64,000 bases of DNA from Candidatus Saccharimonadia bacterium (GTDB lineage: Bacteria; Patescibacteriota; Saccharimonadia; UBA4664), in NCBI GenBank assembly GCA_038245115.1, contig JBBRSS010000003.1:3298-67297 (forward strand), given 5' to 3'. The notes beneath the pieces are model-generated. The model did no database searches and was not told where the DNA came from. It saw nothing but the letters and a program-made list of their open reading frames with translations. Each line of letters opens with the position of its first letter. Position 1 is the stretch's first letter. Shown here piece by piece: positions 2,485-64,000 of the stretch. Position numbers and translations under genes: made by a program.

Positions 2485-2487
2485 TTA

Positions 2488-3233: not shown

Positions 3234-3271
3234 GTTTTTATATTTTTCGGGCTCCCACGGCCCGACACCCT

Positions 3272-3357: not shown

Positions 3358-3365
3358 GCAATTAT

Positions 3366-4301: not shown

Positions 4302-4303
4302 AA

Positions 4304-4924: not shown

Positions 4925-5039
4925 AACAATACCCGTATCAGAAGCAGAATGTCAAATCAGTTATGCCCTTGCACCTTAACCATGCGGATATCCAAGCAAT
5001 TTGGTATACTAGTTACAACCAACAACAAGGACTATATAT

Positions 5040-5597: not shown

Positions 5598-5609
5598 GGA
5601 GCCAATTCA

Positions 5610-6167: not shown

Positions 6168-6174
6168 GAGAAAC

Positions 6175-7841: not shown

Positions 7842-7914
7842 GCGTAAGTAATACATAATAGTATTCAGTCCTGGAACACTCCGTTCCAGGCCCCGGCCGA
7901 TAGGGGAAAGTGCC

Positions 7915-8352: not shown

Positions 8353-8376
8353 CTCCGGCGCCGTCCACCCCCAGCC

Positions 8377-8416
8377 CCCGATCTCACACTCACAGCGTTG
8401 TGGGTGTGAGATCGGG
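8377..8416 (+). terminator. Strong stem-loop (18-bp stem, 1 mismatch) downstream of the 7915-8352 ORF
   Basis: CCCGATCTCACACTCACA gcgt TGTGGGTGTGAGATCGGG. Confidence 0.4.
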
Positions 8417-8482
8417 CCAAGCCCGAGTTTTCAACTCCCGAGTTGACGCCTCAGGTTAGGTATTTCCGCTATAATAGTAGTT

Positions 8483-10501: not shown

Positions 10502-10532
10502 GCCACAAGAAGCAATGTGCTACAATACACTC

Positions 10533-10660
10533 ACAATGCCTTCGGGCTCCGAGGACTCCACCCCAGGGGTCCGAAGTTGGTAACGGTCAGTCAGATGACA
10601 TTATCAGCGCCACAATGCCTTCGGGCTCCGAGGACTCCCCATAAGGGAGTCCGATTTTAT
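10533..10660 (+). repeat. Tandem 2x repeat of a UUCG-tetraloop hairpin element in the ligA 3' region; second copy forms an intrinsic terminator
   Basis: Perfect 27-nt direct repeat ACAATGCCTTCGGGCTCCGAGGACTCC at 10533 and 10612; each holds GCC-UUCG-GGC plus a GGACTCC.../GGRGTCC stem; the second is followed by TTTTATTT. Confidence 0.5.
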
Positions 10661-11058
10661 TTCCCGGAAGCTATTTCTTTGATCAGCCGCATTTGTATAT
10701 CTCTGAATGTAACCGGTTCCATGGTGTATAGCTTGCGCACCAGCCTTCGTCCATCGAATGCGCGTAACTGCGAAATAATTGCTGCATACATCTGCCCGTC
10801 ATGGCGGTACGAAAAATAGTATGGGTTGGCCGCTTTTACCTTGGTCGAAAGCGGGACTCCCCAAAACAGATTTGTGTCAAAGCCTCGCACAATCAGCACT
10901 GGACGTTCAAATCGGTCATTGTGGCCATCCTGCTCACGTCCAACATTCACGCCGATCGAACAATGCCAGACTTCGCGTTCGGCAAAAAATGCCCCGGCAT
11001 CAGCCTCATCCAGCCGCTTCTTTAGCGCATTCCATCCATCGAAATCTTTGCTCCACAT
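10657..11058 (-). CDS. MazF/PemK (Kid)-fold toxin-like protein, no cognate antitoxin ORF evident
   Basis: Core VWHCSIGVNVGREQDGHNDRFERPVLIVRGFDTNLFWGVPLSTKVK matches the PemK/MazF pattern (G.EQ.G.RP.L.V....VPLTS) after a 27-aa N-extension. Confidence 0.5.
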   Translation of the reverse strand: MWSKDFDGWNALKKRLDEADAGAFFAEREVWHCSIGVNVGREQDGHNDRFERPVLIVRGFDTNLFWGVPLSTKVKAANPYYFSYRHDGQMYAAIISQLRAFDGRRLVRKLYTMEPVTFRDIQMRLIKEIASGK

Positions 11059-11078
11059 AGTGATATTTTATCACAAAA
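11059..11078. promoter_or_regulatory. Perfect palindrome GTGATATTTTATCAC abutting the MazF-like start codon
   Basis: GTGATA-TTT-TATCAC at 11060-11074, immediately 5' of the ATG on the minus strand. Confidence 0.35.
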
Positions 11079-11235
11079 CCGAACAAAACAAGAACAAGTA
11101 TACGTCACCTCCATTATCACCGACACCCTCGCCACGGGCACCCTTGCGGGCCGCCGCCGCACCTAACCTTCCCGATTTCGCGCGGGCCGGGCATGTATAG
11201 CTGACTTTACATCCAGTCTGCGCTACAATGCCATC

Positions 11236-11451
11236 ATGACCCACAGCGAAACCGTTCAAAATATAGTGGCTATTCGCCGGCGCGAGTTGGGGCTAACTCA
11301 GGAGGAGCTGGCCGAACGGGTGCGGGTGACGCGGCAAACCATTATCTCCATCGAGAAGGGGAATTATGTTCCGTCGGTAATGCTGGCAATTAAATTGGCC
11401 CGCGTCTTTGGTGCGGCCGTTGAGGAGGTTTTTACGTATGAAGGCAAATAG
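11236..11451 (+). CDS. XRE-family HTH transcriptional regulator (71 aa)
   Basis: LGLTQEELAERVRVTRQTIISIEKG HTH_3 signature; CTGACT-17-TACAAT promoter with -10 ending 6 nt before the ATG. Confidence 0.7.
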   Translation: MTHSETVQNIVAIRRRELGLTQEELAERVRVTRQTIISIEKGNYVPSVMLAIKLARVFGAAVEEVFTYEGK

Positions 11452-11806
11452 GGCCAGGCTGTCTGAGTGGGCGATTGGGGCGGTGAGCGCCGTAGCCTTG
11501 CTGTTGCTCGTGGATCCTTGGGGGATGCTCATGCCCCCGGCCGTCGTAATGGCGCTCGGTGTGGCGGTGGCCGTGCTGGTGATTGGTTTTGCCATGTTCT
11601 GGTGGCGCGAGCAACCGCGCGACGAACGCGAAAGCCTGTATGCACTGCGCGCCGGCCGTGTATCGTATTTGGCCGGCGGGGCGGTATTGCTGGCCGGAGT
11701 GGTCTACCAGGCGTTTATGCACCACATCGATCCGTGGCTCCCGCTGGCGCTCGGTGCGATGATACTTACCAAATTGGTAGTCAGCGCCTGGTGGCAGCAA
11801 AAGTAA
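11438..11806 (+). CDS. Small membrane protein co-transcribed with the XRE regulator
   Basis: ATG overlaps the end of the XRE gene; 3-4 TM helices; the ORF track extends to 11408 but the RBS-less overlap start at 11438 is preferred. Confidence 0.45.
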   Translation: MKANRARLSEWAIGAVSAVALLLLVDPWGMLMPPAVVMALGVAVAVLVIGFAMFWWREQPRDERESLYALRAGRVSYLAGGAVLLAGVVYQAFMHHIDPWLPLALGAMILTKLVVSAWWQQK

Positions 11807-14303: not shown

Positions 14304-14448
14304 AACGGCATAAAAAATACCACCCCTTGCGGAGTGGTCAGCTGGTCCGGGTAGCCCGTAGGGCTTTTCCATTCGGAATTTGTCCCCGGTAGCTCGTTAC
14401 AGGATGATACTATCATAAAACGCCAGTACCAGTAAATAACACTATCAA

Positions 14449-15657: not shown

Positions 15658-16224
15658 ATGAAAACCTTGAGCAACATATCGACGATCCAGTCTGGCTTCA
15701 CATTTCGCGAGGCAGTCTTCCATGACCCGGAAGGTGACGTGAACATCATTCAGGCAAAAGATATCCATGATGGGTCGATACATTTCGCCGAACTGCCAAA
15801 AGTCCAGGGTGTATCATTGCGCGCCACACGGCTTACTGGCAACATTGTGCTACTCTCAGCGCGCGGCAGCTTCCGGGCGGCGGCATGTAGCTTCGCTGAG
15901 CCAGCCGTGGCAGCATCATCCCTCTATGTTATTTGGCCTGACGATGCTCAGGCAGACCCTGAGTTTCTGTCACTCTATCTGAACAGCCCAGTGGCCCAGG
16001 CATACTTCGCTCAGAATTCAACAGGATCATCTATTAAGACACTTCTCATTGGTACGCTCCGTAACCTGCCCGTTCCCGATGTGCCACTCGATCGCCAAGC
16101 TAAGATCGTCAGATTGCGGAAGAATCAACAGCAACAGCATACTATCCTCGAGCGCCGCATCGCCATAAACCAAGCCATTCTCACAGAATTAATCACCACC
16201 GCATCACAAGGAGCCGCCGCATGA
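15658..16224 (+). CDS. hsdS: Type I R-M specificity subunit, half-size HsdS (single target-recognition domain)
   Basis: A TRD-like region plus a conserved HsdS C-terminal helix; stop overlaps the hsdM start (ATGA). Confidence 0.7.
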   Translation: MKTLSNISTIQSGFTFREAVFHDPEGDVNIIQAKDIHDGSIHFAELPKVQGVSLRATRLTGNIVLLSARGSFRAAACSFAEPAVAASSLYVIWPDDAQADPEFLSLYLNSPVAQAYFAQNSTGSSIKTLLIGTLRNLPVPDVPLDRQAKIVRLRKNQQQQHTILERRIAINQAILTELITTASQGAAA

Positions 16225-17735
16225 CCGCCAAATCCTACACCCAAGAAGAGCTCAACGGAATCCTGTGGAACGCCGCAGATTCATCCCGCACCTCTCTCGA
16301 TGGCGGGGTCTACAAAGATTACGTGCTTACCATGCTATTCTTCAAGTACCTCAGTGACTTATCGAAAAAGCAGATAGAGGTCTATCGTCAGCGATTCGCA
16401 GGTGACGTCGAGCGTATCACCAGCAAAATAAAGGCCGAGCGTTTTTACCTGCCCGTCGAAGCTACCTTCGACTACGTCTACGCCAAGAAGGAAGAAGATA
16501 ATATCGGCGAGGAGATCAACAAGGCCCTCCACCGCATTGAAGATATCAACAGGTCCAAGCTCGAAGGCGTCTTCAGTGTCGACTTCAACTCAGAATCCAC
16601 CCTCGGTAAGCTCGAGCAACGCAACAAGATGCTGCGACACCTGCTCGACGACTTCAACGGCATCGACCTGGCACATATAAATGAAGACGTCATCGGTAAC
16701 TCCTATATGTACCTCATCGAGAAGTTCGGTGCCGACGCCGGCAAGAAAGCCGGAGAATTTTTTACGGTCAAATCCGTCGCCAGCCTCGTCGCCAGGCTCG
16801 CCCAACCCAAGCCGGGCGACCGCATTTGCGACCCCGCCGTCGGCAGTGGCGGCCTGCTACTTCTGGCTGGCGCCGAAGTCGAAAAGCAGGGCTCGAACAA
16901 TTACGCGCTATATGGCCAAGAGTCCACCGGCAGCACCTACCAGCTCGCGCGTATGAACATGTTTTTGCACGGTAAAGACTCCGCCCACCTCGAATGGGGT
17001 GATACCTTGAACAACCCATTGTTCGTCGAGAACGACCGCCTCATGAAGTTCGACGTTTGTGTAGCCAATCCGCCCTTCTCACTCAAGAAATGGGGGGCCG
17101 AAAACGCCGAGAGTGATCGCTACAAGCGTTTCTGGCGCGGCATCCCGCCCAAAGACAAGGGCGACTACGCCTTCGTCACTCACATGGTAGAAACTGCCAA
17201 ACCAAAAACTGGCCGCATCGCCGTCATCGTCCCCCACGGCGTTCTTTTCCGCGGTGGTGTCGAAGGCAAAATCCGCGAAGCCTTCCTGCGCGAGAATATC
17301 ATTGATGCCGTCATTGGCCTGCCCGCCGGGCTCTTCCAGACTACCGGCATCCCCGTCGCCATCCTCGTGATCGACCGTTCCCGCGAAGTTGGCGGCGCCA
17401 ACCATAGCAAAAAAGACGTACTCTTTATTGAAGCCTCCAAGCAATTCAAGCCCGGCAAGGCCCGCAACAGCCTTAAGCCCGAGCATATCGATACCATTTT
17501 CAATACCTTCATCGCGCGCCAAGATGTCGACAAATTTGCCCACGTCGCCACCTTCGCCGAAATCCAGGAAAACGAATTCAACCTTAACATCACCCGCTAT
17601 GTTGATACCTTCGTCGAAGAGGCGGAAATCGACATCCAGGCTAACCTCAAAGAGCTCGAAGCCCTCAAGCCTGAGTTGGCTCGACTTGAAGCCCAGATGG
17701 ACGACTACCTAAAGCAGCTGGGGATTAAACCATGA
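16221..17735 (+). CDS. hsdM: Type I R-M DNA methyltransferase subunit HsdM
   Basis: N6-adenine MTase motifs: VANPPFSLKKW (motif IV) and DPAVGSGGLL (motif I); HsdM N-domain. Confidence 0.9.
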   Translation: MTAKSYTQEELNGILWNAADSSRTSLDGGVYKDYVLTMLFFKYLSDLSKKQIEVYRQRFAGDVERITSKIKAERFYLPVEATFDYVYAKKEEDNIGEEINKALHRIEDINRSKLEGVFSVDFNSESTLGKLEQRNKMLRHLLDDFNGIDLAHINEDVIGNSYMYLIEKFGADAGKKAGEFFTVKSVASLVARLAQPKPGDRICDPAVGSGGLLLLAGAEVEKQGSNNYALYGQESTGSTYQLARMNMFLHGKDSAHLEWGDTLNNPLFVENDRLMKFDVCVANPPFSLKKWGAENAESDRYKRFWRGIPPKDKGDYAFVTHMVETAKPKTGRIAVIVPHGVLFRGGVEGKIREAFLRENIIDAVIGLPAGLFQTTGIPVAILVIDRSREVGGANHSKKDVLFIEASKQFKPGKARNSLKPEHIDTIFNTFIARQDVDKFAHVATFAEIQENEFNLNITRYVDTFVEEAEIDIQANLKELEALKPELARLEAQMDDYLKQLGIKP

Positions 17736-17953
17736 GCGTCCAACCTCACGAAGGCGGCTTCCTTTTTGAGTCGACTAAACTACCAGAAACCAGCAATGTG
17801 CAAAAATTGCACGTTGCAGATTTCACCAAACGATTTGCTTACTACTGTCTGGACGCGGTTACTCGGGTTTTCCACAACCATTTCGAGGATGTCCTCGAAA
17901 TGGTATTTGTCCGCTCCAGTGCTAAAAACACCGTTGTAAGTGGCACGAAATGA
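17732..17953 (+). CDS. Small hypothetical protein translationally coupled between hsdM and the KilA-N gene
   Basis: ATGA overlaps at both ends (17732 and 17950). Confidence 0.3.
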   Translation: MSVQPHEGGFLFESTKLPETSNVQKLHVADFTKRFAYYCLDAVTRVFHNHFEDVLEMVFVRSSAKNTVVSGTK

Positions 17954-18798
17954 AAAAGATCACTGCCAAAGACGTGAGCATTTACGTTACTCAAGCACAT
18001 AATGCCGACTTCATCTCTCTCACGGATATGGCAAGATACCGGGATGAAGAACGAAGTGATTATATAATCCAAAACTGGATGCGCAATCGCAGTACCATTG
18101 AGTTCATTGGCATCTGGGAGACCATTCACAACCCTAGTTTTAAATCCATCGAATTCGATGGATTTAAAAACGAAGCCGGTTCCAATAGCTTCTCACTCAC
18201 GCCTAAGAAGTGGATCGAGACTACGAACGCAACCGGCCTGATCACCCGAAAGGGCAAGTACGGCGGCGGTACTTTTGCCCACGCCGACATTGCTCTAGAG
18301 TTTGCCGGTTGGCTTTCGCCAGAATTCAAACTATACGTAATCAAAGAATTTCAGCGCCTCAAAGATGACGAAAGTACTCGTCAGGCCCTGGGCTGGGATA
18401 CCAAGCGTACGCTGGCCAAAATCAATTACCGCATCCATACAGACGCCATCAAGCAGCATATTATTCCCGCAAAACTATCTGCCACCCAAGCAGGTATAGT
18501 TTATGCAAATGAAGCCGACGTGCTCAACAAGGCCCTATTCGGCATGACGGCCAAAGAATGGCGTACCGCTAATCCCAAACAAACTGGCAACATTCGCGAC
18601 TACGCCGAAGCCTCACAGCTTGTCTGTCTATCCAACCTTGAAAGCCTCAACGCCGAATTCATCCGCGCCGGCTACTCGCAACCAGACAGGCTCATCAAAC
18701 TCAACGAAAGCGCGATCATCCAAATGAAATCGTTGGCCCAAAACCGGGCGATCCAAGCGCTGAGTAATCTGACCGCAAAACAGGAAAGGGACAAGTAA
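17950..18798 (+). CDS. KilA-N domain DNA-binding protein embedded in the R-M operon
   Basis: FISLTDMARY...GTFAHADIALEFAGWLSPEFKLYV is the KilA-N/APSES-type signature. Confidence 0.7.
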   Translation: MKKITAKDVSIYVTQAHNADFISLTDMARYRDEERSDYIIQNWMRNRSTIEFIGIWETIHNPSFKSIEFDGFKNEAGSNSFSLTPKKWIETTNATGLITRKGKYGGGTFAHADIALEFAGWLSPEFKLYVIKEFQRLKDDESTRQALGWDTKRTLAKINYRIHTDAIKQHIIPAKLSATQAGIVYANEADVLNKALFGMTAKEWRTANPKQTGNIRDYAEASQLVCLSNLESLNAEFIRAGYSQPDRLIKLNESAIIQMKSLAQNRAIQALSNLTAKQERDK

Positions 18799-20043
18799 AT
18801 GAGTAGCCGTAAATACGTGCGGTTAAGCAGCATAGCAGATGTCCAAACCGGACCGTTCGGAAGCCTTTTTCATGAGGGTGACTATGTAGAATATGGTATG
18901 CCGATGATTACTGTCGAGAATATTAGAGACAGCAGAATTGCTCTTACGCCTGGAACGCCTATGGTTAGTATTCCAGACGCAGAAAGGTTGAAAAAGTTCG
19001 CGCTCAGAGAAGGCGATGTCGTATTTAGCCGGGTCGGTTGTGTCGACAGATCTGCACATGCAACGTTAGCGCAGCAGGGGTGGCTGTTTTCGGGTCGTTT
19101 GCTAAGGGTCAGAGCGAGACCCGGAACCGACGCCAAATTTCTCCACTATTATTTTTCTTACGAGGCCACTAAAATCCTCATTCGAAATATGGCCGTCGGC
19201 GGTACCATGGCATCCCTCAATACGGGCATCCTGAAATCATTGCCAATCCCAGATATTAAACTTGCAGAGCAAAACGGCATCGTGGGGATCCTTGAGATTT
19301 GGGATGAGGCGATCGATACTCTGACGGCAGTGATCTATGCGTATACGAGAGCGAAGAATGGCTTAGCGCAAGAATTGCTTTCGGGAGCACGGCGATTGGC
19401 CGGCTTTACAAGCAGTTGGCTGCCGGTGCGACTCGGCGAAACCACGAGTTTACTAAAAGACGGAACCCACGGCTCACATATAGACGTAAAGGACGGAATA
19501 CCCCTTCTGAGCGCGAAAGACATTGGGGACGGGCAGATCGATTTTCAAAACGAACCCCGACTAATTTCTGTTGGCGACTTCAACCACATTCACAATAAGT
19601 ACAAAATACAAGACGAAGATATCTTACTAAGTCTTGTTGGAAGTATTGGGAAGGTCGCAATTGTCGCCAACTACCATGATAATTTCACACTTCAGAGAAG
19701 CGTTGGAATTATACGATTTATCAAGCAAAACAGTCGCTTTATGTTTTATCTCTTCCGGGCTGCTAAATTTCAGAATGAACTCTCAAAAATCCAAAATAAG
19801 GGTGCTCAAGGAGGGGTCTACCTCGGGAATCTCTCTAAATTGGTACTAAACTTGCCTACGTTGCCTGAGCAGGCCGCAATCGCCAATATTCTCACTGCCT
19901 CCGATGATGAAATTGCGACGCTTATGCGAAAACTTGCACTCTTCAAGGAACAGCGCGAATATCTCCTCAACAACTTAATGAGCGGAAAAATCCGCACGCC
20001 CGAAAGCCTCAAAATACCCACCCAGGAGCCTACCCATGCATGA
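18799..20043 (+). CDS. hsdS: Type I R-M specificity subunit HsdS (two TRDs)
   Basis: Two TRDs separated by a conserved central repeat; 414 aa; start abuts the KilA-N stop; 8-nt overlap with hsdR. Confidence 0.85.
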   Translation: MSSRKYVRLSSIADVQTGPFGSLFHEGDYVEYGMPMITVENIRDSRIALTPGTPMVSIPDAERLKKFALREGDVVFSRVGCVDRSAHATLAQQGWLFSGRLLRVRARPGTDAKFLHYYFSYEATKILIRNMAVGGTMASLNTGILKSLPIPDIKLAEQNGIVGILEIWDEAIDTLTAVIYAYTRAKNGLAQELLSGARRLAGFTSSWLPVRLGETTSLLKDGTHGSHIDVKDGIPLLSAKDIGDGQIDFQNEPRLISVGDFNHIHNKYKIQDEDILLSLVGSIGKVAIVANYHDNFTLQRSVGIIRFIKQNSRFMFYLFRAAKFQNELSKIQNKGAQGGVYLGNLSKLVLNLPTLPEQAAIANILTASDDEIATLMRKLALFKEQREYLLNNLMSGKIRTPESLKIPTQEPTHA

Positions 20044-23000
20044 CATCGATTTTGACGAGGCCAAACAATCACAGCTTCCGTTTGTAGAGCTGCTGATCAA
20101 CCTCGGCTATACGTACATACCCGCAAAAGAGGTGCTGCGCCAGCGCGGCGACGATACTTCGAATTTCATCCTCAAGGATGTGGCGGCGCGCGCCCTCATG
20201 AACATCAACCAGTATGAGTATGATGACTCGCTGCACAATTTCAGTGACAAAGATGTGCACGACGCCATCGACGAGCTGGAGAACCTTCAGTTTGAAGGCC
20301 TCATCGACACGTCCAGAACCGTCTTCAATACCATTATGCCAACGCGCGGCGGCCGAACTATCAAGGTGCTACTCGACGGGAAATATGAATCCAAGAGCTT
20401 CAGGTTCATTGATTTTGACGAGCCCACCAATAATGAATTCAACGTTACGGTCGAATATCCCGCCAGCGGGAAGGGCAACATTCGCCCGGATATTGTGTGT
20501 TTCGTAAACGGGATACCCTTCGTTGTCATTGAGAACAAGAAATCCAGCGTGGATGTGGACGAGGCAATGAACCAGCTGGTGCGCAATCAGGGCGTGGATC
20601 GGTGCCCGAGGCTGTTTATCTATCCGCAGTTGCTCATTGCTACCAATGGCAAAGACATGCGCTACGGCACCACCGGCACGCCGGCTAAGTTTTATGCCAA
20701 CTGGCGCGAAAAAGATACAGCTGACACGGTTATTGAAGAGCGCGCAAAAGTGCTGATGGCTCAGCCGATCGAGCGGGGTATTTATCGGACCTTGCTATCT
20801 GATTTGAACGGCTCCGTTTTTGGGCATGCCCAAAAACTAAGTCGGGAAGTGACCGCTCAGGATCGTGCCGTGGTCGCGATGTTCGACAAAGCCCGTCTGC
20901 TTGATCTTACGAAAAACTACATTCTCTATGATGCTGGAACCAAGAAGGTCATGCGCTACCAACAGTATTTTGCCATTCACAAGATTCTAAAGCGCATTCA
21001 AAACGTGGAGCCGTCTGATGTCGGCGAACGCCGCAAAGGCGGGATCGTCTGGCACACCCAAGGCTCTGGTAAATCTCTGACGATGGTCATGTTTGTGCGG
21101 GCGTTGATCGAGGATGCGAGCATCGTGAACCCGCGAGTGATCATCGTGACCGACCGTAAGGACCTCGATCGGCAGATTAAGGGCACTTTTAACAATGCTG
21201 GGCTGAAGAAAAACGTCATTCAGGCTACTAGTGGCGAGCACCTGCTGGAGCTGATCAAGGATCGCGATAAGCGCATCATTACCACGCTCGTGCACAAGTT
21301 CCAAAGTGCCGGCCGTAATCGGGCCGACTTTGACGTGGACCACGACGCCAATATCTTTGTGCTCATCGATGAGGCCCACCGCTCGCAGGGCGGTGACGCC
21401 AATAGTGAAATGAACCTTATTATTCCCAACGCCTGTTACATCGCCTTTACGGGCACGCCTTTGCTCAAAAATGAGCGTTCGCGCGGCAAGTTTGGTGACT
21501 TTATCGACAAGTACACCATTGATGACGCCCTCGCGGATAAGATCATTTTGCCGCTGATTTATGAAGGTCGGTATGTGGACCTCAAGCAAGATAAGGATGA
21601 GATTGATCGCCTCATTGAGCGCCTTACCCAGGGCTTAAGTGATGAGCAAAAACGACAGCTCCAAAAGAATGTTCAGCAGGGGATTATTAAAGATAACCCA
21701 AAGCGGATCATAGAGATCGCCTACGACATTGAACGACACTATATAGACAAGCTCCAAGGCTCGGGCCTCAAAGCTCAGATTGTAGCGCCCTCAAAGTTCT
21801 CGGCCGTCATGATGCAGAAGTTCTTTGCCGATAGCGGCAAGGTCAACACTGCCCTAGTGATCTCCGACGAAAACGGCATCATTGCCGAAGGCGACGACCA
21901 CAAAAAAGAGGTGGATGATTATCTGAAGGATGTGAAGGAGAAATACCAGAGCCTCCTAACGTATGAAAAAGATGTTGTTTATAGCTTTGTAAATTACGAT
22001 GACAGCGTCGAGATTTTGATTGTGGTCGATAAACTTTTGACCGGCTTCGATGCGCCTCGCAACACGATCCTTTATCTGGCGCGCGAACTGACTGATCACA
22101 ACTTACTGCAGGCTATAGCTCGAGTGAACCGGCTCTATGAAAACCCTAGCTTGCCAAAGACTGCCGGGTTTATCATCGATTATTCCGAGAATGCTCAAAA
22201 TATTCACACCGCCATGCAGTTGTTCGGCAATTACGACGAAGATGACGTAAAGGGCGCGCTTGTAGACGTTAAGGACAAGATCAACGAGCTAGAAGCCGCC
22301 TACGCCGCACTCCATGATCTATTTAACGGCGTCGCTCATGATGACGAGGCCTATCTACAATTCTTGGCCGACGAGCCAACTCGCAAACAATTCGTGTTTG
22401 CGCTTAACGACTTCGTGCGGCTATTTGGCGAATCGATGACGCTTCAGGACTTCTCACTCAAATTCCCGCAGTTGCACTTGTACCGAGAGGAATGTAAGAA
22501 ATTCCTAGAGCTCCGAAAATCTGCCAATTTGCGGTACGCTGACCTCACGGATCTGCGGCCGTATAAGCTCGCGCTCATCAAAATCATGGATGACAACATC
22601 AAGGCGGACGAAGCCGAGCTGCTGACCGAGCAGATCGATATTACCAATAAAGAATTGTTTGAAAAGGCTATCGAAGAATTGGGCTCTGATAAGTCAAAAG
22701 CCGAGGCGATTGCGGCGCAAACCCAGAAAACAATCACCGAGCGACAGTCGTCCGATCCTGAGTTCTACGCACGTTTTTCAAAGCGCATTACCGAGATTAT
22801 CGATGCCATGCGCGAGAAGAAGCTGGCGGATATTGAAGCGCTTAAGCAGCTAAGACTCATTAGCGACGACGTGTTGGACAAAAAAGACGATGAGCTCCCA
22901 GAGGCCGTTGCAAAGAGCCCAGGGGCGGACATTTTATATCGTAACCTGGCTGGGAGCGTGGCGGGTATTGATGGAAATGAGTATGAACGGGCAGTGCTCG

Positions 23001-23212
23001 GGATGAATGAGGTTCTGCGGCAGGCAGCTACGGTCGACTGGTGGCGCAGCCACGAAACCAAACGGCAGATGCGCAGCAAGCTCGATGACTACCTGTACGA
23101 CGTCGTTAAAACAGAGCTGGGTGCCCAGCTTACCTATGAGCGGATTGAAAACATTATCGTGGAGGTCATGACGTTGGCTGAGCATAATCATGATGTATTT
23201 ACTCAGCAATGA
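20036..23212 (+). CDS. hsdR: Type I restriction enzyme R subunit HsdR
   Basis: N-terminal nuclease region, SF2 helicase motifs (TGSGKS Walker A, VLIDEAHRSQ DEAH box), 1058 aa. Confidence 0.9.
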   Translation: MHDIDFDEAKQSQLPFVELLINLGYTYIPAKEVLRQRGDDTSNFILKDVAARALMNINQYEYDDSLHNFSDKDVHDAIDELENLQFEGLIDTSRTVFNTIMPTRGGRTIKVLLDGKYESKSFRFIDFDEPTNNEFNVTVEYPASGKGNIRPDIVCFVNGIPFVVIENKKSSVDVDEAMNQLVRNQGVDRCPRLFIYPQLLIATNGKDMRYGTTGTPAKFYANWREKDTADTVIEERAKVLMAQPIERGIYRTLLSDLNGSVFGHAQKLSREVTAQDRAVVAMFDKARLLDLTKNYILYDAGTKKVMRYQQYFAIHKILKRIQNVEPSDVGERRKGGIVWHTQGSGKSLTMVMFVRALIEDASIVNPRVIIVTDRKDLDRQIKGTFNNAGLKKNVIQATSGEHLLELIKDRDKRIITTLVHKFQSAGRNRADFDVDHDANIFVLIDEAHRSQGGDANSEMNLIIPNACYIAFTGTPLLKNERSRGKFGDFIDKYTIDDALADKIILPLIYEGRYVDLKQDKDEIDRLIERLTQGLSDEQKRQLQKNVQQGIIKDNPKRIIEIAYDIERHYIDKLQGSGLKAQIVAPSKFSAVMMQKFFADSGKVNTALVISDENGIIAEGDDHKKEVDDYLKDVKEKYQSLLTYEKDVVYSFVNYDDSVEILIVVDKLLTGFDAPRNTILYLARELTDHNLLQAIARVNRLYENPSLPKTAGFIIDYSENAQNIHTAMQLFGNYDEDDVKGALVDVKDKINELEAAYAALHDLFNGVAHDDEAYLQFLADEPTRKQFVFALNDFVRLFGESMTLQDFSLKFPQLHLYREECKKFLELRKSANLRYADLTDLRPYKLALIKIMDDNIKADEAELLTEQIDITNKELFEKAIEELGSDKSKAEAIAAQTQKTITERQSSDPEFYARFSKRITEIIDAMREKKLADIEALKQLRLISDDVLDKKDDELPEAVAKSPGADILYRNLAGSVAGIDGNEYERAVLGMNEVLRQAATVDWWRSHETKRQMRSKLDDYLYDVVKTELGAQLTYERIENIIVEVMTLAEHNHDVFTQQ

Positions 23213-58330: not shown

Positions 58331-58416
58331 GCGGATGTGGTGGAATGGTAGACACGCTAGCCTTAGGAGCTAGTGGGGGCAACCCCGTGAAGGTTCAAGT
58401 CCTTTCATCCGCACCA
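58331..58416 (+). tRNA. tRNA-Leu (TAG), type II
   Basis: Acceptor GCGGATG/CATCCGC, anticodon stem CTAGC/GCTAG with loop cuTAGga, long variable arm, T-arm GGTTCAAGTCC, ACCA; 86 nt. Confidence 0.85.
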
Positions 58417-59954
58417 GGCATTATTTCGCCCGCTTTTATTAGGCTGGCAAACGGTTCGTTCCAGACATAATCCACTACTTTTGCGTTATCTACACGAAGG
58501 TTCAAAAACAAAATCCGGCAGAGAGTATCCTTTTCGACGGCAGAACCGGCTTTCATCCTTTCCGAAGCCATTTTAACGACGTTCAAGAATTCGTCGCGGC
58601 CCAGCTTGATTTGTCGCGGGTTGGCAATCTTTTTCTCCATCTCTAGTACTTGCGCCTCGAGGTCCCCTCGACGAACGGCTAGGTCGTTAATGAAGTCGTT
58701 GTTGACCGTGAAGGCGGTTGTGTCCCTATCCATGCGGCCGAGGTTGCGGCTGCGCTCATTAATGTCACGGGTCATGCTTGTAATGGCGGCCCGTCGGCTG
58801 ATTATCTCGGTCCTCATCTCAGCCACCTTCTCATCGGTGAAGCTGTCGATTTGGGCACTGTACACGTCGTATACGGTGTCCGAGAGCCGCATGCCGTCAA
58901 GAACGCCATATATGGAATTGAAGACATTACGCGCCCGTAGGGAGCGTGGAGTGCGGGTACACAACTTATTGTCGCAGCGATAGGATAAAACGTAGGTACC
59001 GCCTCCGGTCCTGTTCTTACCGACGAGCATGTATTTACGGTCGTTGCATACTGCACAGAACACTAAACCACGGAGGGGGTAAAACGCCGAGCGCTTCGTG
59101 GGGGAGGTGTCTTTTTTCCGACCATAGCCAATGACGCTGACATTTTCGTAGGTCTCCTCTGTAATTATAGGGACAAAGTTGTATATTTCGCGCAGGTCCA
59201 CAGCATGCCCGGCCTGGGCCAACTTTCCGTAATAAAAGGGGTCCTTGAACATAACGGCCAGGCTGTTCTTCGTTGGCCGGATTGCGCGGCGGTAGCGACC
59301 TTTAGTCGTCCGCTGGTACCCGGAGTCCTCTAGAAACTTTGCGATGGCAGCAAGTGTTTCGCCGGCTTCGCGTTTTACCCACGCCTGCTGGATTAATTTG
59401 AAATTGTTGTTTTGCGTGTAGAGGCCGGTCATCTCATCGCGGTCATACCCCCATTTCGGTGAGCCGGATGATTTTCCCTCACGGAAGTTACCATCTACCC
59501 CTCGTGAAACCTTGTCAGATAAATCGTCGGAGAAGTGTTTCGATAACACGAACAAGAAGCCGAGCAGCAGCTTCCCGTTGGCATCATTTGTGAACTGGTG
59601 ACTATGTAGGCGTATATCCTGTAGGACATTAGTATCGAGCAGGCTCATGATGACCCCGCTCTCCTGCGCATTGCGACTCAACCGGTCCGGATGCCAGCAC
59701 AAGATGGCATCATACTTACCTGCTTTTATCTCCGCCACCATTTTGTCGAAGCCTGGCCGCTGGTCGGCAAACTTAGCCGACTTGGTCTCTCGTATCTCGG
59801 CCACGATACGCAGACCAAGGCGCTCGGCTAAATCGCGACATTCACGTACCTGGTCCGGGATAGAGCGGATTTGGCGTTTTTCATCCTCGGTGGACTTTCT
59901 AGCATAAAGTACGTACCGAAGTTTAGTTAGGTCAGTCGGTTCTTGGCTTAGCAT
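58395..59954 (-). CDS. Large serine recombinase (resolvase N-domain, recombinase domain, zinc ribbon)
   Basis: YVLYARKSTEDE catalytic Ser motif, recombinase domain, Cys-rich ribbon (CAVCNDRKY...YRCDNKLC); the 3' end overlaps the tRNA-Leu 3' end by 22 nt. Confidence 0.85.
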   Translation of the reverse strand: MLSQEPTDLTKLRYVLYARKSTEDEKRQIRSIPDQVRECRDLAERLGLRIVAEIRETKSAKFADQRPGFDKMVAEIKAGKYDAILCWHPDRLSRNAQESGVIMSLLDTNVLQDIRLHSHQFTNDANGKLLLGFLFVLSKHFSDDLSDKVSRGVDGNFREGKSSGSPKWGYDRDEMTGLYTQNNNFKLIQQAWVKREAGETLAAIAKFLEDSGYQRTTKGRYRRAIRPTKNSLAVMFKDPFYYGKLAQAGHAVDLREIYNFVPIITEETYENVSVIGYGRKKDTSPTKRSAFYPLRGLVFCAVCNDRKYMLVGKNRTGGGTYVLSYRCDNKLCTRTPRSLRARNVFNSIYGVLDGMRLSDTVYDVYSAQIDSFTDEKVAEMRTEIISRRAAITSMTRDINERSRNLGRMDRDTTAFTVNNDFINDLAVRRGDLEAQVLEMEKKIANPRQIKLGRDEFLNVVKMASERMKAGSAVEKDTLCRILFLNLRVDNAKVVDYVWNEPFASLIKAGEIMPGADERT

Positions 59955-60430
59955 TGAGACATTCTACACCATACCTACAATTTTATGCGCCCGCCGCTGT
60001 TATCGGTGATGGATGTTTCATTTAGACGGGTCTCGGTAGGGGAGGGCTTTATTGCCGAAATTGCTTCTACGAGTTCATATAACCGACGATTTACCGCATC
60101 GGGCCGACCGCGCACATATTCATCCTGCTTTTGCCTACGCTTGGCCTGCATGTGCCCCAGCTCCCCGCATGCGCCGCCTTATTGCGGCGCGTTAATCATT
60201 CCGATGCGGTAAACAAAAAAGCCAATCAAAAAATACCAGTAGGGGCTGACATTATCGGAGTGGCCTTAACGCGGGCCATGAGACCTATCGCGCGATAGGC
60301 TCCCAGATGCTGAGCAGATTACAGATATTCATTAATTGACCTTGACGCTTTCCCGGAATGGGCGGGTCGAATTGCTTGGAACGTTTCAAGCAGTCAATGA
60401 GTATGATGGATTTTCAAGCTTACGGATTAA

Positions 60431-60799
60431 TTATATTTCGCTGGGCTTATCTGTCAAACCCTCGGAACTTTTCCCAGCATAGATAGGCGATGGAAGCGGT
60501 CCATAGTCGGTGGTTAAGTCGAGTTTGGTTCCATAGCCATATTTTGCGAGGAGGTCGATAGCCTTAAGGTCTCCCTCCAGTGCGCGCACAATCAGTGTCG
60601 CAACGATTGCCCGTATCGGCGCGCCCTTAAAACGGCTCCCGTCGTTGAATGTCAGCTTAAATCCGTCGTCTGCCAGCATTTCCTGTATCCACGTACTTAA
60701 ATGCTTTGTACCGCGCGGCTTGCCGGAAGGGTTACCAGACACGCCGGACTTCCATTGCGACTTTACGAGATGTGATGTTTTGGGAGTTAGGTTCGCCAT
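60431..60799 (-). CDS. DUF5681-like protein (phage/plasmid-associated)
   Basis: SGNPSGKPRGTKH resembles the DUF5681 GNPAGRPKG motif. Confidence 0.35.
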   Translation of the reverse strand: MANLTPKTSHLVKSQWKSGVSGNPSGKPRGTKHLSTWIQEMLADDGFKLTFNDGSRFKGAPIRAIVATLIVRALEGDLKAIDLLAKYGYGTKLDLTTDYGPLPSPIYAGKSSEGLTDKPSEI

Positions 60800-60825
60800 T
60801 GCCTGATTTATGCCTGTTATGGCTA

Positions 60826-61263
60826 TTATACCCGGCCAGGTATTCCGCGAAGGTAAGTGCTGGCTTCCAGGTAGCGGCGGTGGCGCGCTTTGTCCTTCTC
60901 CGTCGGGTTGGATAGGCGGCCGAGGTTCATGTTGTCGGCAAGGTCGGCTAGCTTAATGCGCGTCGCCTGGGCGTTCGTGCCGATGTTGTGTACGTAATCC
61001 ATGTAGGGGACTGCTTTAGCGTGCGTAAGGAGGGCCAAGACCTGAGCGCCGGTTTCTGATAAGCCCTCGGCTTGGAGGTCGGCCAGTGTAAAGGCCGTAT
61101 CCTCAACAATGTCGTGCAGAAGGGCGATTATACGGTCATCGGGGTCGGTGAGGCTCAGTGCGACTCTCAGCGGGTGTAGGATGTATGGCTGACCGCCTTT
61201 GTCCACCTGGCCGCGATGGGCTTGGGCGGCGATGGTTAGCCCGCGTTCAAAGTCTAGCGTCAT
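60826..61263 (-). CDS. Small alarmone hydrolase (RelA/SpoT-type HD domain, (p)ppGpp pyrophosphohydrolase-like)
   Basis: AHRGQVDKGGQPYILHPLRVA...LLHDIVEDT matches the SpoT/Mesh1 HD N-terminal signature; 145 aa single domain. Confidence 0.6.
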   Translation of the reverse strand: MTLDFERGLTIAAQAHRGQVDKGGQPYILHPLRVALSLTDPDDRIIALLHDIVEDTAFTLADLQAEGLSETGAQVLALLTHAKAVPYMDYVHNIGTNAQATRIKLADLADNMNLGRLSNPTEKDKARHRRYLEASTYLRGIPGRV

Positions 61264-61667
61264 TCTTTCGCCTCACGGGCGACGACTTCGGCCCTGGACT
61301 TGGCGTAGTCCCATGCTGAAAACTCCACAATGCCGCCGTTTGGAGTCTCATCAATGATAAATGGGTCTTCGCCGTACTGAGTGTATGAGGCGTATAGCTG
61401 CTCTGCCGTTATGCCAGCAGCAAATGGACCTGTGAATGAGCGGTCTACAATTTCCTGGCAAACACGGACAGCCTCAGCGTATGAGTCATACGTGCCCTTT
61501 TTGTACCGCTCACTCTCATCCATGAAGTGGTAATTATCATCAACTTCAACTGTGTACTGACCGGCCCCGGCGCTGGTCTTCGGTTTTGGCAAAGCCGCCG
61601 CCAATATTTTGCTTATCTGGCTCGGCGTTTTGCCTTTAGTTGAGATGAGGGCGATTAGTCGTTTCAT
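61260..61667 (-). CDS. Hypothetical protein
   Basis: ATGA overlap with the downstream SAH gene; 135 aa. Confidence 0.35.
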   Translation of the reverse strand: MKRLIALISTKGKTPSQISKILAAALPKPKTSAGAGQYTVEVDDNYHFMDESERYKKGTYDSYAEAVRVCQEIVDRSFTGPFAAGITAEQLYASYTQYGEDPFIIDETPNGGIVEFSAWDYAKSRAEVVAREAKE

Positions 61668-61812
61668 TGTATATATCTCCTTCCGGTGAGCACGAAAATG
61701 CGGCTCACTTCAAATTAATGAAGTAGCCGCAATGGACGCCGTAATTGGCCGCTGTCCTACATTCATACTATAGCATGAATAGCGAAGTACTGCAAATTAC
61801 TGACAGGGCATC

Positions 61813-62160
61813 TTACCAAAGGTTAAGTAGATTTACTGCGACAATGGCCATAACAATCGGGAAAAGAAAATCTATTATCGAAGTGACGGTGAATAGACTT
61901 AAAACCAAAACGTTATTTGTATCTGGAACGCGCTTATATTTTTGGATGCGTACCCAAAAAAGGGGTATAGAAAGTATCGAAATGACAAATACCCCAGGCA
62001 AGATTAGTAGGAAGATGTCGAGCATAGGGTGGTTATGGGCGATAAAGCTCCAGATTATCCCGGCAATCAACCACCATCCGATAGTGTTTTTGGCATAGCG
62101 ACTTGCAGACTCGTTAAACCAATCCCGGTGGATACCCATAATTATGTCTGGTTGTGACAT
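61813..62160 (-). CDS. Small membrane protein
   Basis: 3 hydrophobic helices, 115 aa. Confidence 0.35.
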   Translation of the reverse strand: MSQPDIIMGIHRDWFNESASRYAKNTIGWWLIAGIIWSFIAHNHPMLDIFLLILPGVFVISILSIPLFWVRIQKYKRVPDTNNVLVLSLFTVTSIIDFLFPIVMAIVAVNLLNLW

Positions 62161-62263
62161 TGAAAAAGCCTAAACGTAATTTCGCTAAACATAGCCTAAA
62201 TAAGTTCATAATGCAAACATTTGTTAGTGTTGCTTACAAAAGGCGACAAATACGCTTAGTTTT

Positions 62264-62491
62264 ATGGATGCTAGGCGAGAAAACAAAATACTTGATGAAG
62301 TTGGAAGTCGCCTGGCTTTGGCCCGTAAAGACAAGCAAATGTCCCAAGAGGAACTTGCGGCTAAAACGGGCCTAGATAGAGTAGCCATTGGATACATTGA
62401 GCAAGGTAGGCGGCGGCCGACGTTAACTACCATCATCCGACTCAGTCGCGGTCTCGGCGTCAGCCTGGAAAAGCTATTTACCGGGCTGTAG
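62264..62491 (+). CDS. XRE-family HTH regulator
   Basis: MSQEELAAKTGLDRVAIGYIEQGRRRPTLTTIIRLSRGL HTH_3 motif. Confidence 0.7.
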   Translation: MDARRENKILDEVGSRLALARKDKQMSQEELAAKTGLDRVAIGYIEQGRRRPTLTTIIRLSRGLGVSLEKLFTGL

Positions 62492-63160
62492 CTATTCGCT
62501 GTTGAGCGGGAAAGTGAGTCCTTGGTGATTATTCTTAACGTTACCCACATCACGGTGTACCTCGTGACGCTTCATCGGCTGGTCGTACGGGTCTAAGAGG
62601 AGCTGCAGTTCGCCCGGTTCGGTTTTCGGGTCTAGCCAGTGTGCCTCTTCATCGCGGTCTAATATAACTGGCATACGGTCATGTATGTCCTCAAGGGTGG
62701 AGTTCGGCTTAGTTGTTATTATGGTATAGCTCTTATGGGCCACACCGGCACTGTCGTACCACACGTCGTAAAGCCCGGCGAAGCTGAATAGCGCGCGGTT
62801 TTGAAGCTGAAAGTAGTAAGGCTGTTTGAATGTTTCCCGCTTTTGCCACTCATAAAAACCGGATGCAGGTATCAACGCCCGACGCTTTTTATATGGACCT
62901 CGGTAAAGTGGCTTTTCAGCTAATGTCTCAGCCCTGGCGTTGATACTGGTAAATGCGGGCTTGAACTCCTTCGACCACGATGGCACCAACCCCCACGTCA
63001 TAAGCTCTACCCCCTCAGCTGTGGCCACCGGCATACTTTGCGTAGGGGCGACATTATAATTGGCTTTCATGTCACGCTCAAACTTCTCGTCCATTTCAAG
63101 CTGCGAGTAGTAGTCCATGAGGACTTTGCCATTTACGACGATGCTGTATCTTCCGCACAT
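62492..63160 (-). CDS. SOS-response-associated peptidase (SRAP/YedK, DUF159)
   Basis: N-terminal MCGRY with catalytic Cys2; 222 aa. Confidence 0.8.
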   Translation of the reverse strand: MCGRYSIVVNGKVLMDYYSQLEMDEKFERDMKANYNVAPTQSMPVATAEGVELMTWGLVPSWSKEFKPAFTSINARAETLAEKPLYRGPYKKRRALIPASGFYEWQKRETFKQPYYFQLQNRALFSFAGLYDVWYDSAGVAHKSYTIITTKPNSTLEDIHDRMPVILDRDEEAHWLDPKTEPGELQLLLDPYDQPMKRHEVHRDVGNVKNNHQGLTFPLNSE

Positions 63161-63164
63161 GTGT

Positions 63165-63389
63165 TTAGGGTATCACGCGGAGCAGGTGGTCTAGCGAAAC
63201 TTTCAATTTCTGAGCAATAGCGCAGGCCAGGTAGAGCTGGAGGTTGGTATTGCTGCCGCGCTCTATGGCCATTATTTCATCCGCAGATATGCCAAGATGC
63301 CTGCCCAGCCCGGCCGGAGTCCACTTTTGCTCGATACGTAGGGACTTCATATTTTTGCCAAACCGCACAAGGTCCTGGCTGTAGGCCAT
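63165..63389 (-). CDS. XRE-family HTH regulator
   Basis: HTH_3-like (TPAGLGRHLGISADEIMAIERG). Confidence 0.6.
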   Translation of the reverse strand: MAYSQDLVRFGKNMKSLRIEQKWTPAGLGRHLGISADEIMAIERGSNTNLQLYLACAIAQKLKVSLDHLLRVIP

Positions 63390-63595
63390 TAAAGCAGTTC
63401 CAGGATATTCATATCGAGTGCGTCGGCTATTCGTTGTGCTTCAAAGACCGTGGCGACCCGCGTACCGCGTTCAATGGCTAGAAGGTAGTCGACACTCATC
63501 CCGACTTCCGACGCAAGCTGTGATGGCTCGCGGTGCGCAAGCTGGCGATAGTGCTGGATATGCAGCCCGAAGCTCTCTTTTGACAGTTGTCTCAT
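63389..63595 (-). CDS. XRE-family HTH regulator
   Basis: HTH_3-like (SQLASEVGMSVDYLLAIERG); overlaps the previous gene by 1 nt. Confidence 0.6.
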   Translation of the reverse strand: MRQLSKESFGLHIQHYRQLAHREPSQLASEVGMSVDYLLAIERGTRVATVFEAQRIADALDMNILELL

Positions 63596-63665
63596 AGATT
63601 ATCCCCCTGATTATGTAGAAGATAATACATCAAAACCGAACAATAACCATACACAATTAAGGAGA

Positions 63666-63959
63666 CTACGTAGTTGTTGAGTATGTACGCTGAAAAGTGT
63701 TTTCGACGAGGCGGACTTTTTGGTCAGTCCGATATCTCCACAGCGAGTCCGACTCTGGTACGCGCTCGACCATTTCAGAGTCGAGGCGTAGTGAGACAAC
63801 GTCAGTGATGCCGTCGGCAGAGGGCTTACTCGCAACTACGGCAAGGAAGCTTGAGGCCCCGGGGTTACGGTTCTTTGGGTCAGCGGCAGTATCAATGAGC
63901 TTTTGTACGGGTATCGCTTCATACCAGGAAAATTGGACGCGCTTTCCGGGCTCGAGCAT
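63666..63959 (-). CDS. Hypothetical protein
   Basis: 97-aa ORF with coding-like composition inside the island. Confidence 0.3.
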   Translation of the reverse strand: MLEPGKRVQFSWYEAIPVQKLIDTAADPKNRNPGASSFLAVVASKPSADGITDVVSLRLDSEMVERVPESDSLWRYRTDQKVRLVENTFQRTYSTTT

Positions 63960-64000
63960 CTGTATTGCATTTTCATCGCCCGCGTGCGCGTATGGTATTC

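Follow-up and report, generated by a model that had tools for sequence, protein, structure and literature searches.

A small genomic island at tRNA-Leu(TAG) of a Candidatus Saccharibacteria chromosome and the tRNA-associated family of its large serine recombinase

We analyzed 64,000 nucleotides (hereafter the window) of contig JBBRSS010000003.1 from a Candidatus Saccharimonadia bacterium, focusing on positions 58331 to 64000. This region very probably represents 5.6 kb at the left end of a site-specific genomic island that measures 8,863 bp and resides in a Candidatus Saccharibacteria chromosome, and whose insertion at tRNA-Leu(TAG) was driven by a large serine recombinase (LSR) encoded on the island itself. 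As a small island with defense cargo the element is ordinary; less ordinary are the class of its integrase, the stop codon that the tRNA gene supplies to it and the tRNA-targeting clade to which this integrase belongs. The features at the tRNA end of the island are the following:

58331-58416, plus strand, intact tRNA-Leu(TAG), the target gene, with attB in its 3' part (ARAGORN; Rfam, 60.9 bits)
58404-58416, no strand, putative attL core, the 13-bp TTCATCCGCACCA, which comprises the acceptor-stem 3' strand and CCA (from the repeat and the synteny break)
58395-59954, minus strand, LSR, 519 aa (Pfam Resolvase and Recombinase; PHROG 95, integrase, 3.9e-56)
59975-60151, minus strand, small open reading frame (ORF), 58 aa, directly upstream of the LSR (conserved partner of the LSR family)
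60430-60457 (8084-8111 of contig L001, see below), minus strand, sigma-70-like consensus TTGACA-16-TATAAT (12 of 12 positions; a consensus match only)

The 64-kb window contains a single copy of TTCATCCGCACCA, the one in the tRNA gene. An exact-protein look-up led to L001, a 10,154-bp Logan contig from SRR19962014 that matches the window without a difference along 5,614 bp and prolongs the element to position 68540 of a composite of window and L001, whose coordinates are used here beyond position 64000. L001 holds two copies of TTCATCCGCACCA, as compared with none expected from 200 shuffles, and the second of them, the presumed attR copy, lies outside the window in direct orientation at composite 67267-67279 (L001 1262-1274), which gives a core-to-core island size of 8,863 bp. 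The GC content of the island is 0.51, versus 0.549 for the remaining window. The host gene recG, upstream of the site, places the genome in Candidatus Saccharibacteria. The nearest relative, L002 (80% RecG identity, on an 829-kb contig), shows the order recG...rsmD, tRNA-Leu(TAG), one small ORF and a mazE/pemK pair; 85 of the 86 nt of the tRNA gene match its tRNA and the core is present there once. The whole island block, from 58417 to composite 67358, is absent at this tRNA-Leu(TAG) of L002 while the flanks are kept, and nucleotide similarity between the window and L002 ends at 58416 and restarts at composite 67359, 80 bp past the second repeat. The repeat downstream together with the absence of the block from L002 thus defines a bounded insertion. 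The initial annotation had proposed an integrative element at this tRNA gene that is cut by the window end, and had suggested looking for a repeat of the tRNA 3' end further downstream and for a relative without the insertion; the element is confirmed, L001 continues it, the repeat exists 8.86 kb downstream, and L002 has recG, rsmD, tRNA-Leu(TAG) and mazEF with none of the island genes, so that neither of the two outcomes named there as refuting, a missing repeat and the presence of these genes in all relatives, occurred. From these junctions we reconstructed the attB sequence of the empty site, GGTTCAAGTCCTTTCATCCGCACCAATGTTGACAATATTTTAATC, and the attP sequence of the circle, GATTTGACCGTTCATCCGCACCAGGCATTATTTCGCC; a scan of both for dyad symmetry gave at most 11-12 matches out of 20 and was uninformative.

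Some further observations concern the two ends. The mazE/pemK toxin-antitoxin pair lies directly outside attR (L001 549-1129, composite 67412-67992) and is kept in L002 (16661-17241) with 89% and 73% identity, where a second, diverged mazEF pair follows 1.4 kb further (18662-19253). L001 runs through attR unbroken, and its assembly breaks at window position 58387, 30 nt short of the tRNA 3' end, so that its first 31-mer has one island base. This position fits an assembler with k=31 meeting a branch exactly at the junction of tRNA and island; such a branch could come from an empty site or from another strain with the same tRNA in the sample, and we take it as a hint only.

The recombinase has the domain organization of an LSR. 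A Resolvase domain (PF00239, 8.3e-22) covers residues 15-161, a Recombinase domain (PF07508) scores 23.8 bits with a cutoff of 21.1, and a zinc ribbon (PF13408, Zn_ribbon_recom) stays below its threshold (16.7 versus 25.3). The cysteines C300, C303, C327 and C332 are invariant in an alignment of 22 family members, as are S21, in the motif YARKS21T, R19 and Q28; the ORF is full length and holds every family-invariant residue. The best NCBIfam matches are XisF (70 bits) and CcrB (46 bits), both far under the cutoffs of those families. In its Resolvase-Recombinase-zinc-ribbon order, its N-terminal catalytic serine, its short att sites and the expectation of a separate small directionality factor, the enzyme resembles the LSRs of phages and integrative and conjugative elements (phiC31, Bxb1, A118, TP901-1; CcrAB of SCCmec), whereas it differs from them in that tRNA 3' ends are targeted, attP overlaps the integrase stop and a family-specific partner ORF of 50-65 aa is present.

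The last seven codons and the stop of the LSR gene, 22 nt in all, come from the strand opposite the tRNA 3' end, and the stop, TGA, is the reverse complement of the conserved T-loop (TTCAA). Because this stop is read from the tRNA, the last residues of the LSR in its integrated state are dictated by the tRNA rather than shaped by protein-level selection. In the excised state, the ORF would continue into the other island end and encode 558 aa instead of 519 aa; for three relatives the same comparison predicts excised and integrated lengths of 529/526, 565/515 and 523/523 aa. The 22-nt overlap had been annotated as the usual signature of integration into a tRNA gene. ARAGORN, Rfam and the ORF coordinates all agree on the overlap, but as a generic signature it normally belongs to tyrosine integrases, and in this family it follows a rule of its own, as described below.

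At a threshold of E below 1e-20, more than 1,000 relatives of the LSR are known, mostly from Saccharibacteria. Among the top 120, which have about 520 aa and 49-62% identity, the proteins whose source is named stem from Saccharimonadales or Saccharibacteria. In each of seven further loci retrieved by exact-protein look-up, the LSR ORF ends inside a tRNA gene on the opposite strand (Leu-TAG in one, Pro-GGG in two, Met-CAT in four). An alignment-seeded scan of metagenomes and IMG/VR added 82 LSR loci, 65 of which could be evaluated because they extend at least 60 nt past the stop. An opposite-strand tRNA gene sits at the LSR stop in 58 of these 65 (89%): the ORF overlaps the tRNA in 54, by exactly 22 nt in 36 loci, and in the other four the tRNA starts 9-31 nt past the stop. 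The tRNAs are Leu in 26 loci (TAG, GAG, CAG, TAA), Met in 15, Pro in nine, Gly, Arg and Ser in two each, and Ala and Phe in one each, and the association holds down to 29% LSR identity. CCA is encoded in all 56 of 56 tRNA genes. The overlap length obeys a simple rule, since an ORF that enters the complement of the tRNA in a fixed frame and meets the T-loop TTCAA acquires a TGA at positions 20-22 from the tRNA 3' end and consequently a 22-nt overlap. All 39 loci assigned to this class have that codon and a measured overlap of 22 nt; one further locus with TGA continues to 89 nt, probably owing to a frame difference. In 11 loci the T-loop reads TTCGA, the codon becomes CGA, and the ORF reads through to 34-64 nt.

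Direct repeats of the tRNA 3' end bound islands of 5.4-7.2 kb in three relatives (L170, 21 nt; L107, 19 nt; L123, about 14 nt), and the repeats of the relatives taken together suggest that the crossover falls in the 3' acceptor-stem strand. Other related loci show how such sites are occupied. The same rsmD/tRNA-Leu(TAG) site carries, in another Saccharibacteria genome (L082, one of the seven loci from the exact-protein look-up), a different island with a restriction enzyme of the NgoMIV type and a methylase; further in, this locus (1-11622) encodes a tyrosine integrase, an HTH_17 excisionase-like gene and homologues of two XRE regulators of our island (XRE75 and XRE74, see below), which suggests tandem or nested elements at an rsmD/tRNA-Leu(TAG) hotspot. 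In L083 and L090, related LSRs are found at tRNA-Pro(GGG), in both cases between infC-rpmI-rplT and peptidase M50/rpmB, and the unit of island and tRNA is inverted relative to the flanks in one as compared with the other. The island of L129 sits between two complete, diverged tRNA-Leu genes (4569-4650 and 11548-11633) rather than between a tRNA gene and a fragment.

Apart from the LSR, the only gene that recurs in the family is the small ORF. A tblastn search of all island proteins against about 90 related loci recovered the LSR in 93 loci and the small ORF as the sole recurring genes; the HD hydrolase, SRAP, retron genes and proteins of no annotated family described below are unique to this island within that sample. 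The cargo of the relatives belongs mostly to defense or competition, namely restriction-modification, Mrr, HATPase/methylase pairs and an RHS-type giant protein or toxin. Homologues of the small ORF were detected in 41 of 51 loci with a hidden Markov model and in 31 by tblastn, always 17-72 nt upstream of the LSR start; they are 50-65 aa long with a conserved C-terminal half ending in ...SIsDNNGGRIxL. The small ORF and the LSR are preceded, at a distance of about 280 nt, by a perfect -35/-10 consensus. The 58-aa protein matches nothing in Pfam, PHROG or NCBIfam. Excision by serine integrases needs a separate directionality factor, and because this small protein is conserved, adjacent to the LSR and co-oriented with it, it would be the best candidate for a recombination directionality factor or cofactor.

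On the basis of this arrangement, the ssrA islands of Dehalococcoides are the closest precedent. In these, the gene of the LSR DsiB adjoins attL on the reverse strand and in every case reaches through attL into the tmRNA gene, the far end is marked by a repeat of about 20 bp, and the islands were judged to be integrative mobilizable elements (McMurdie et al. 2011, PMC3146451). Both are small islands (about 7-10 kb and up in Dehalococcoides) in streamlined genomes, placed at the 3' end of a tRNA-like gene and bounded by a repeat of that end, with an LSR ORF crossing attL, variable cargo and no transfer genes. They differ in the host phylum and in the target, which is the tmRNA gene in Dehalococcoides and tRNA genes of many specificities here; furthermore, the Dehalococcoides module comprises six syntenic genes including DsiA, a second, small serine recombinase, whereas here only a 58-aa non-recombinase ORF accompanies the LSR; the likeness to DsiB described here is one of arrangement. 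With classical tRNA-gene islands, as collected by Islander and TIGER, our island shares an intact tRNA gene restored by the island, a displaced 3' fragment in direct orientation, an integrase next to the tRNA gene and the cargo in between, but those islands use tyrosine integrases. A 2014 survey stated that serine integrases were not known to use tRNA genes, the TIGER survey found t(m)RNA genes to be the sites of only 14 among 297 serine-integrase elements and called for proof by experiment (PMC7192596), and later resource papers added nothing on tRNA targeting by serine integrases. Our full-text literature searches, which paired Saccharibacteria or Patescibacteria with serine recombinase or integrase, brought up no relevant paper, within a coverage that is incomplete, so that an earlier description elsewhere is possible. 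As a broader reading, about as likely as not, we propose that the island is a member of a large, so far undescribed LSR clade that is specialized on tRNA 3' ends and serves as a main vehicle of defense-gene exchange in Saccharibacteria and other Patescibacteria. The hallmarks of this clade would be an attP overlapping the end of the integrase ORF in a constant register, a stop donated by the T-loop, so that the C-terminus changes on excision, and a partner of about 55 aa acting as directionality factor.

For the island itself we favor the following course of events, with attL and attR deduced from sequence. The LSR of the island would have catalyzed recombination between the attP of the island and an attB site within the 3' portion of the tRNA-Leu(TAG) gene. 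Because the incoming island would have supplied the final 13 nt of the tRNA anew, the tRNA gene stays intact, while the displaced original 3' end would now mark the far boundary. Because the LSR gene abuts attP closely, its frame runs into the tRNA once the island is integrated. The mobility module would be minimal, consisting of the LSR and the conserved 58-aa upstream protein as candidate excision factor, and the cargo would be of the defense or immunity type: a type VI retron, an Aph1-like hydrolase, SRAP, XRE regulators and membrane proteins. In the window, this cargo comprises the following features:

60431-60799, minus strand, DUF5681 protein, 122 aa (Pfam, 1.3e-12)
60826-61263, minus strand, stand-alone HD hydrolase, 145 aa, Aph1-like (Pfam HD_4, 4.8e-8; PHROG 990, 2e-40)
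61260-61667, minus strand, protein of an unannotated family, 135 aa, overlapping the start of the HD gene by 4 nt (69 homologues)
61813-62160, minus strand, predicted membrane protein, 115 aa (from the ORF list; no family matches)
62161-62263, no strand, AT-rich intergenic stretch separating XRE75 from the leftward gene string that diverges from it, putative control region (GC 0.40)
62264-62491, plus strand, XRE-family helix-turn-helix (HTH) protein, 75 aa, XRE75 (Pfam HTH_3, 7e-16; homologues in islands L082, L133 and L165)
62492-63160, minus strand, SRAP of the YedK/HMCES type, 222 aa, N-terminal MCGRY with Cys2 (PF02586, 5.7e-68; PHROG 1599, 1e-58)
63165-63389, minus strand, XRE-family HTH protein, 74 aa, XRE74 (Pfam HTH_3, 1.8e-5)
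63389-63595, minus strand, XRE-family HTH protein, 68 aa, XRE68, with a 1-nt overlap with the next XRE gene (Pfam HTH_31/HTH_3, about 1.6e-7)
63666-64000, minus strand, C-terminal part of a 277-aa membrane protein (complete at composite 63666-64499, L001 4042-4875), 31 nt downstream of the reverse transcriptase (RT) gene

From the far end towards the tRNA, the gene order of the complete island is the 215-aa protein, 65-aa ORF, HTH, RT, 277-aa protein, XRE68, XRE74, SRAP, XRE75, 115-aa protein, 135-aa protein, HD, DUF5681, 58-aa ORF and LSR. Nearly all of these genes are on the minus strand, with XRE75 on the opposite one. Pfam, PHROGs and NCBIfam searches of the 15 island proteins revealed no capsid, portal, tail, terminase or lysis gene and no relaxase or coupling protein. 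With neither virion nor conjugation genes, the element is therefore neither a prophage nor a conjugative element but a small integrative cargo island, and the absence of transfer and packaging genes makes it an integrative, non-self-transmissible cargo carrier.

The initial annotation had likened SRAP and the XRE genes to a phage lysogeny or SOS module, which would make the island a prophage or a decayed remnant of one, with these genes as its leftover control. This is extremely improbable. It is true that the LSR, HD, SRAP and XRE proteins match PHROG families, that DUF5681 is found in FelixO1-like phages and that a scan of IMG/VR with the family alignment detected LSR relatives, but these were two distant ones only (29% identity), and the scan with the LSR alone found no relatives. 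Moreover, the complete 8.9-kb element lacks every virion and lysis gene searched for, its boundaries are clean and not eroded, the XRE proteins are small HTH regulators, and the roughly 90 relatives conserve just the LSR and the small ORF while carrying restriction-modification, retron and toxin genes.

A phage satellite, similar to a phage-inducible chromosomal island and packaged by a helper through a small-terminase-like protein (DUF5681 here, an Sf6-type TerS in L083), is highly unlikely as well. The size of 5-9 kb fits the satellite range, an Sf6_terminase-like gene (8e-35) occurs near the LSR in L083, L084 and L092, and the DUF5681 protein has a C-terminal motif in common with the TerS-like protein. 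However, DUF5681 or TerS-like genes are present in a minority of the islands only (about nine related loci for DUF5681, which is recurrent but not universal), there is no primase or replicase, capsid-remodeling or helper-sensing gene, and no helper phage is known. In FelixO1-like phages, the neighbor of DUF5681 is DUF2828/DUF7788 (Ro60/vWA-like) and not the large terminase. The shared motif spans 23 residues, YG-KLDLT...P-PIY-G-S, in the DUF5681 protein and the Sf6-type small-terminase-like protein (L083 7701-8171), with a pairwise E of 3e-5, and may be a common docking tail. Given this short motif as the only shared part and the phage neighborhood, DUF5681 as a small terminase was kept as a low-probability lead.

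The small integrative cargo island thus remains our preferred reading, and one of its cargo genes calls for a revised function. The stand-alone HD protein had been annotated as a (p)ppGpp hydrolase that could manipulate the stringent response of the host. Its best solved relative is Aph1 of Bacteroides caccae (7SMG), with an E of 5.2e-27 and 40% identity over 135 ungapped residues, as compared with 1e-11 or weaker for the hydrolase domains of Rel/SpoT enzymes and 1e-5 to 1e-6 for Mesh1. Aph1 hydrolyzes (p)ppApp with no detectable activity on (p)ppGpp and protects against toxins that synthesize (p)ppApp; all 12 of the 12 tested homologues were (p)ppApp-specific, and about 14% of the homologues are located near integrases (PMC10083569). 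Both proteins are single-domain HD hydrolases of about 145-149 aa on a mobile element, and the length of 145 aa is Aph1-like, as is the absence of the C-terminal helix found in dimeric small alarmone hydrolases; they differ in that the island gene has no adjacent (p)ppApp synthetase toxin of the MuF/Tas1 type and no Tis1-like immunity gene. Judging from this similarity, we consider it fairly probable that the HD protein is a (p)ppApp hydrolase providing stand-alone enzymatic immunity, most probably by destroying (p)ppApp made by toxins. Since the protein is closer to Aph1, manipulation of the stringent response is not the best guess.

A (p)ppGpp hydrolase that resets the host stringent response, or an enzyme with a broader or ppGpp-directed activity, is nevertheless a possible, if rather doubtful, alternative. 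The fold and motifs are those of RelA/SpoT-type HD proteins (Pfam HD_4; TIGR00691, 5e-15), and point variants of Aph1 can widen its specificity to ppGpp (PMC10083569). The Aph1 signature D24, R96, D116, R119, K133 and Y134 corresponds to D21, N93, N113, R116, R130 and Y131 in the island protein, that is, three residues of six are identical (D, R and Y), one is a conservative change (K133 to R) and two differ (R96 to N and D116 to N). Against it stand the 16 orders of magnitude that separate Aph1 from the next solved relatives and the uniform (p)ppApp specificity of the tested Aph1 homologues. The (p)ppApp hydrolase that we prefer would shift the predicted role of the HD protein from the manipulation of the stringent response to immunity against (p)ppApp-making toxins.

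The 135-aa gene coupled to the HD gene was considered as a Tis1-like immunity partner or a toxin and rejected on account of its stand-alone homologues and the lack of a structural match. None of its 69 homologues is annotated and they stand alone in other genomes, so that it is not a conserved partner of the HD protein. A search of PDB sequences gave no match at E up to 10, and its AlphaFold2 model (pLDDT 83.6) showed no significant PDB fold, with weak ERH-like matches only (E 0.04, TM about 0.4).

The far half of the island, beyond the window end, carries a putative type VI retron, with a 65-aa ORF, a 98-aa HTH protein and a 313-aa RT in this order, all on the minus strand. The RT matches the PADLOC model RT_VI at 1.7e-60, versus 5e-44 for the next type, and has the motifs NAxxH (NARQH) and VTG and the catalytic site FVDD; the HTH protein matches HTH_VI at 9.2e-20, and its gene (L001 2782-3078) reaches beyond the start of the RT gene, at 3069. 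Type VI retrons consist of a small-protein toxin, an HTH antitoxin and an RT, with the small-protein coding sequence within a structured 'hybrid' RNA that holds the RT template (10.1101/2025.10.22.683967; 10.64898/2026.04.27.721009). By their sequences, the RT and HTH proteins are those by which a type VI retron is defined, and the complete retron would comprise a small toxic protein, the HTH antitoxin, the RT and a structured upstream RNA. The 65-aa ORF, the candidate for the small protein, lies 60 nt upstream of the HTH gene and has a strong ribosome-binding site, GGAGGG. Folding of the surrounding 641 nt is much better than that of shuffled sequences (z = -3.4), an inverted repeat of 12 nt (L001 2136/2392) is similar to an a1/a2 stem, and an 11-nt repeat pair (L001 2499/2782) brackets its coding sequence. 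An Rfam search of the island for a retron msr or any other RNA gave no match at E up to 1, and a search for homologues of the 65-aa protein found none. Retron-Vpa2 and Retron-Sen3, both of type VI, share the order of small protein, HTH and RT, the overlap of HTH gene and RT start, the RT clade and the structured RNA upstream of and around the coding sequence, whereas the host differs, being here an island of Saccharibacteria, no similarity of the small protein to the clusters described so far was detected, and a rare 277-aa membrane protein, probably unrelated, follows the RT. This last protein has two homologues (61-62% identity) among 5.8 billion clustered proteins, and the only one with genomic context follows a non-RT gene, with which it overlaps by 4 nt; its proposal as a new retron effector is unsupported.

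Several points weigh against the mobile, tRNA-targeting cargo island described here. Current mobility is unproven, as neither an excised circle nor an empty site from the same population was observed. Serine integrases require just a 2-bp core; the 13-bp identity reflects restoration of the tRNA and not the mechanism, and the crossover site is not pinned down by it. A search of 36 related loci for attR found clear repeats solely in L170, L107 and L123, a second, full tRNA-Leu gene instead in L129, and in the remaining loci none of at least 10 nt beyond T-loop matches within 10 kb, so that many islands may be larger, decayed or fixed. The small partner ORF has no detectable similarity to known directionality factors. 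Regarding the cargo, only three of the six Aph1 specificity residues are identical in the HD protein, with no (p)ppApp synthetase toxin nearby, and the small protein and RNA of the retron were assigned only by position and folding.

Some of these points would suit a fixed acquisition that is no longer mobile, in which the LSR has another role or none and the repeat and overlap are relics; data from metagenome-assembled genomes cannot show activity in either case. This explanation is nonetheless quite improbable, because the full-length LSR ORF keeps all family-invariant residues, there is no difference between the two 13-mers, a different island occupies this rsmD/tRNA-Leu(TAG) site in L082, and LSRs of 49-62% identity at different tRNAs with different cargo require repeated recent integration.

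The relevance of an integrated, LSR-driven island at this site goes beyond one locus. Islands at tRNA genes are textbook knowledge but are credited to tyrosine integrases; 58 of 65 relatives of one serine integrase at tRNA 3' ends, covering at least eight amino-acid specificities, make the case statistically and give a simple sequence rule. If this holds true, these would be the first well-supported tRNA-specific serine integrases and would offer off-the-shelf integration tools with few cofactor needs for organisms in which genetic engineering is very difficult: as serine integrases work with short sites and need no host factors, a natural set with attB sites in tRNA genes could be developed into genetic tools for the Candidate Phyla Radiation. 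Furthermore, the islands show how retrons, restriction systems and immunity to toxins are exchanged in these reduced epibionts at a small number of tRNA hotspots.

Among the remaining cargo, Pfam confirms all the domains of the initial annotation (HD, SRAP with MCGRY, three XREs and DUF5681). The SRAP domain covers positions 1-208 of the 214 in the PF02586 profile, includes the catalytic Cys2 and would act as an abasic-site-shielding protein. The three XRE genes had been described as two in tandem and one divergent; XRE68 and XRE74 do form a tandem pair, but XRE75 is convergent with SRAP (the stops abut at 62491/62492) and divergent from the leftward string of the 115-aa, 135-aa, HD and DUF5681 genes, not from the tandem XREs. 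The fourth small HTH of the island belongs to the retron. In the divergent region 62161-62263, AGCCTAAA and CTAAAC(G/A)TA each occur twice; a search for operator-like repeats in the XRE intergenic regions found such short two-copy repeats only, which may be due to chance. The far-end gene encodes the 215-aa protein with an N-terminal membrane anchor and is followed by about 430 bp of non-coding sequence before the 65-aa ORF.

Lastly, some features were noted in other parts of the window. A 311-aa ORF (3366-4301, minus strand), with no Pfam match, ends 9 nt past the 3' end of tRNA-Leu(TAA), which together with tRNA-Cys occupies 3160-3357; with a geometry like that of the LSR and its tRNA, it could be an unrelated gene or mark another island boundary. 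A DUF3800-II RNA motif is located at 14336-14400 on the minus strand (Rfam, 61.2 bits versus a gathering score of 43.2). The lowest GC content of the window (0.48-0.51) is found at 16221-23212, a stretch that encodes a type I restriction-modification system:

16221-17735, hsdM
17950-18798, KilA-N domain protein, between hsdM and hsdS
18799-20043, hsdS
20036-23212, hsdR

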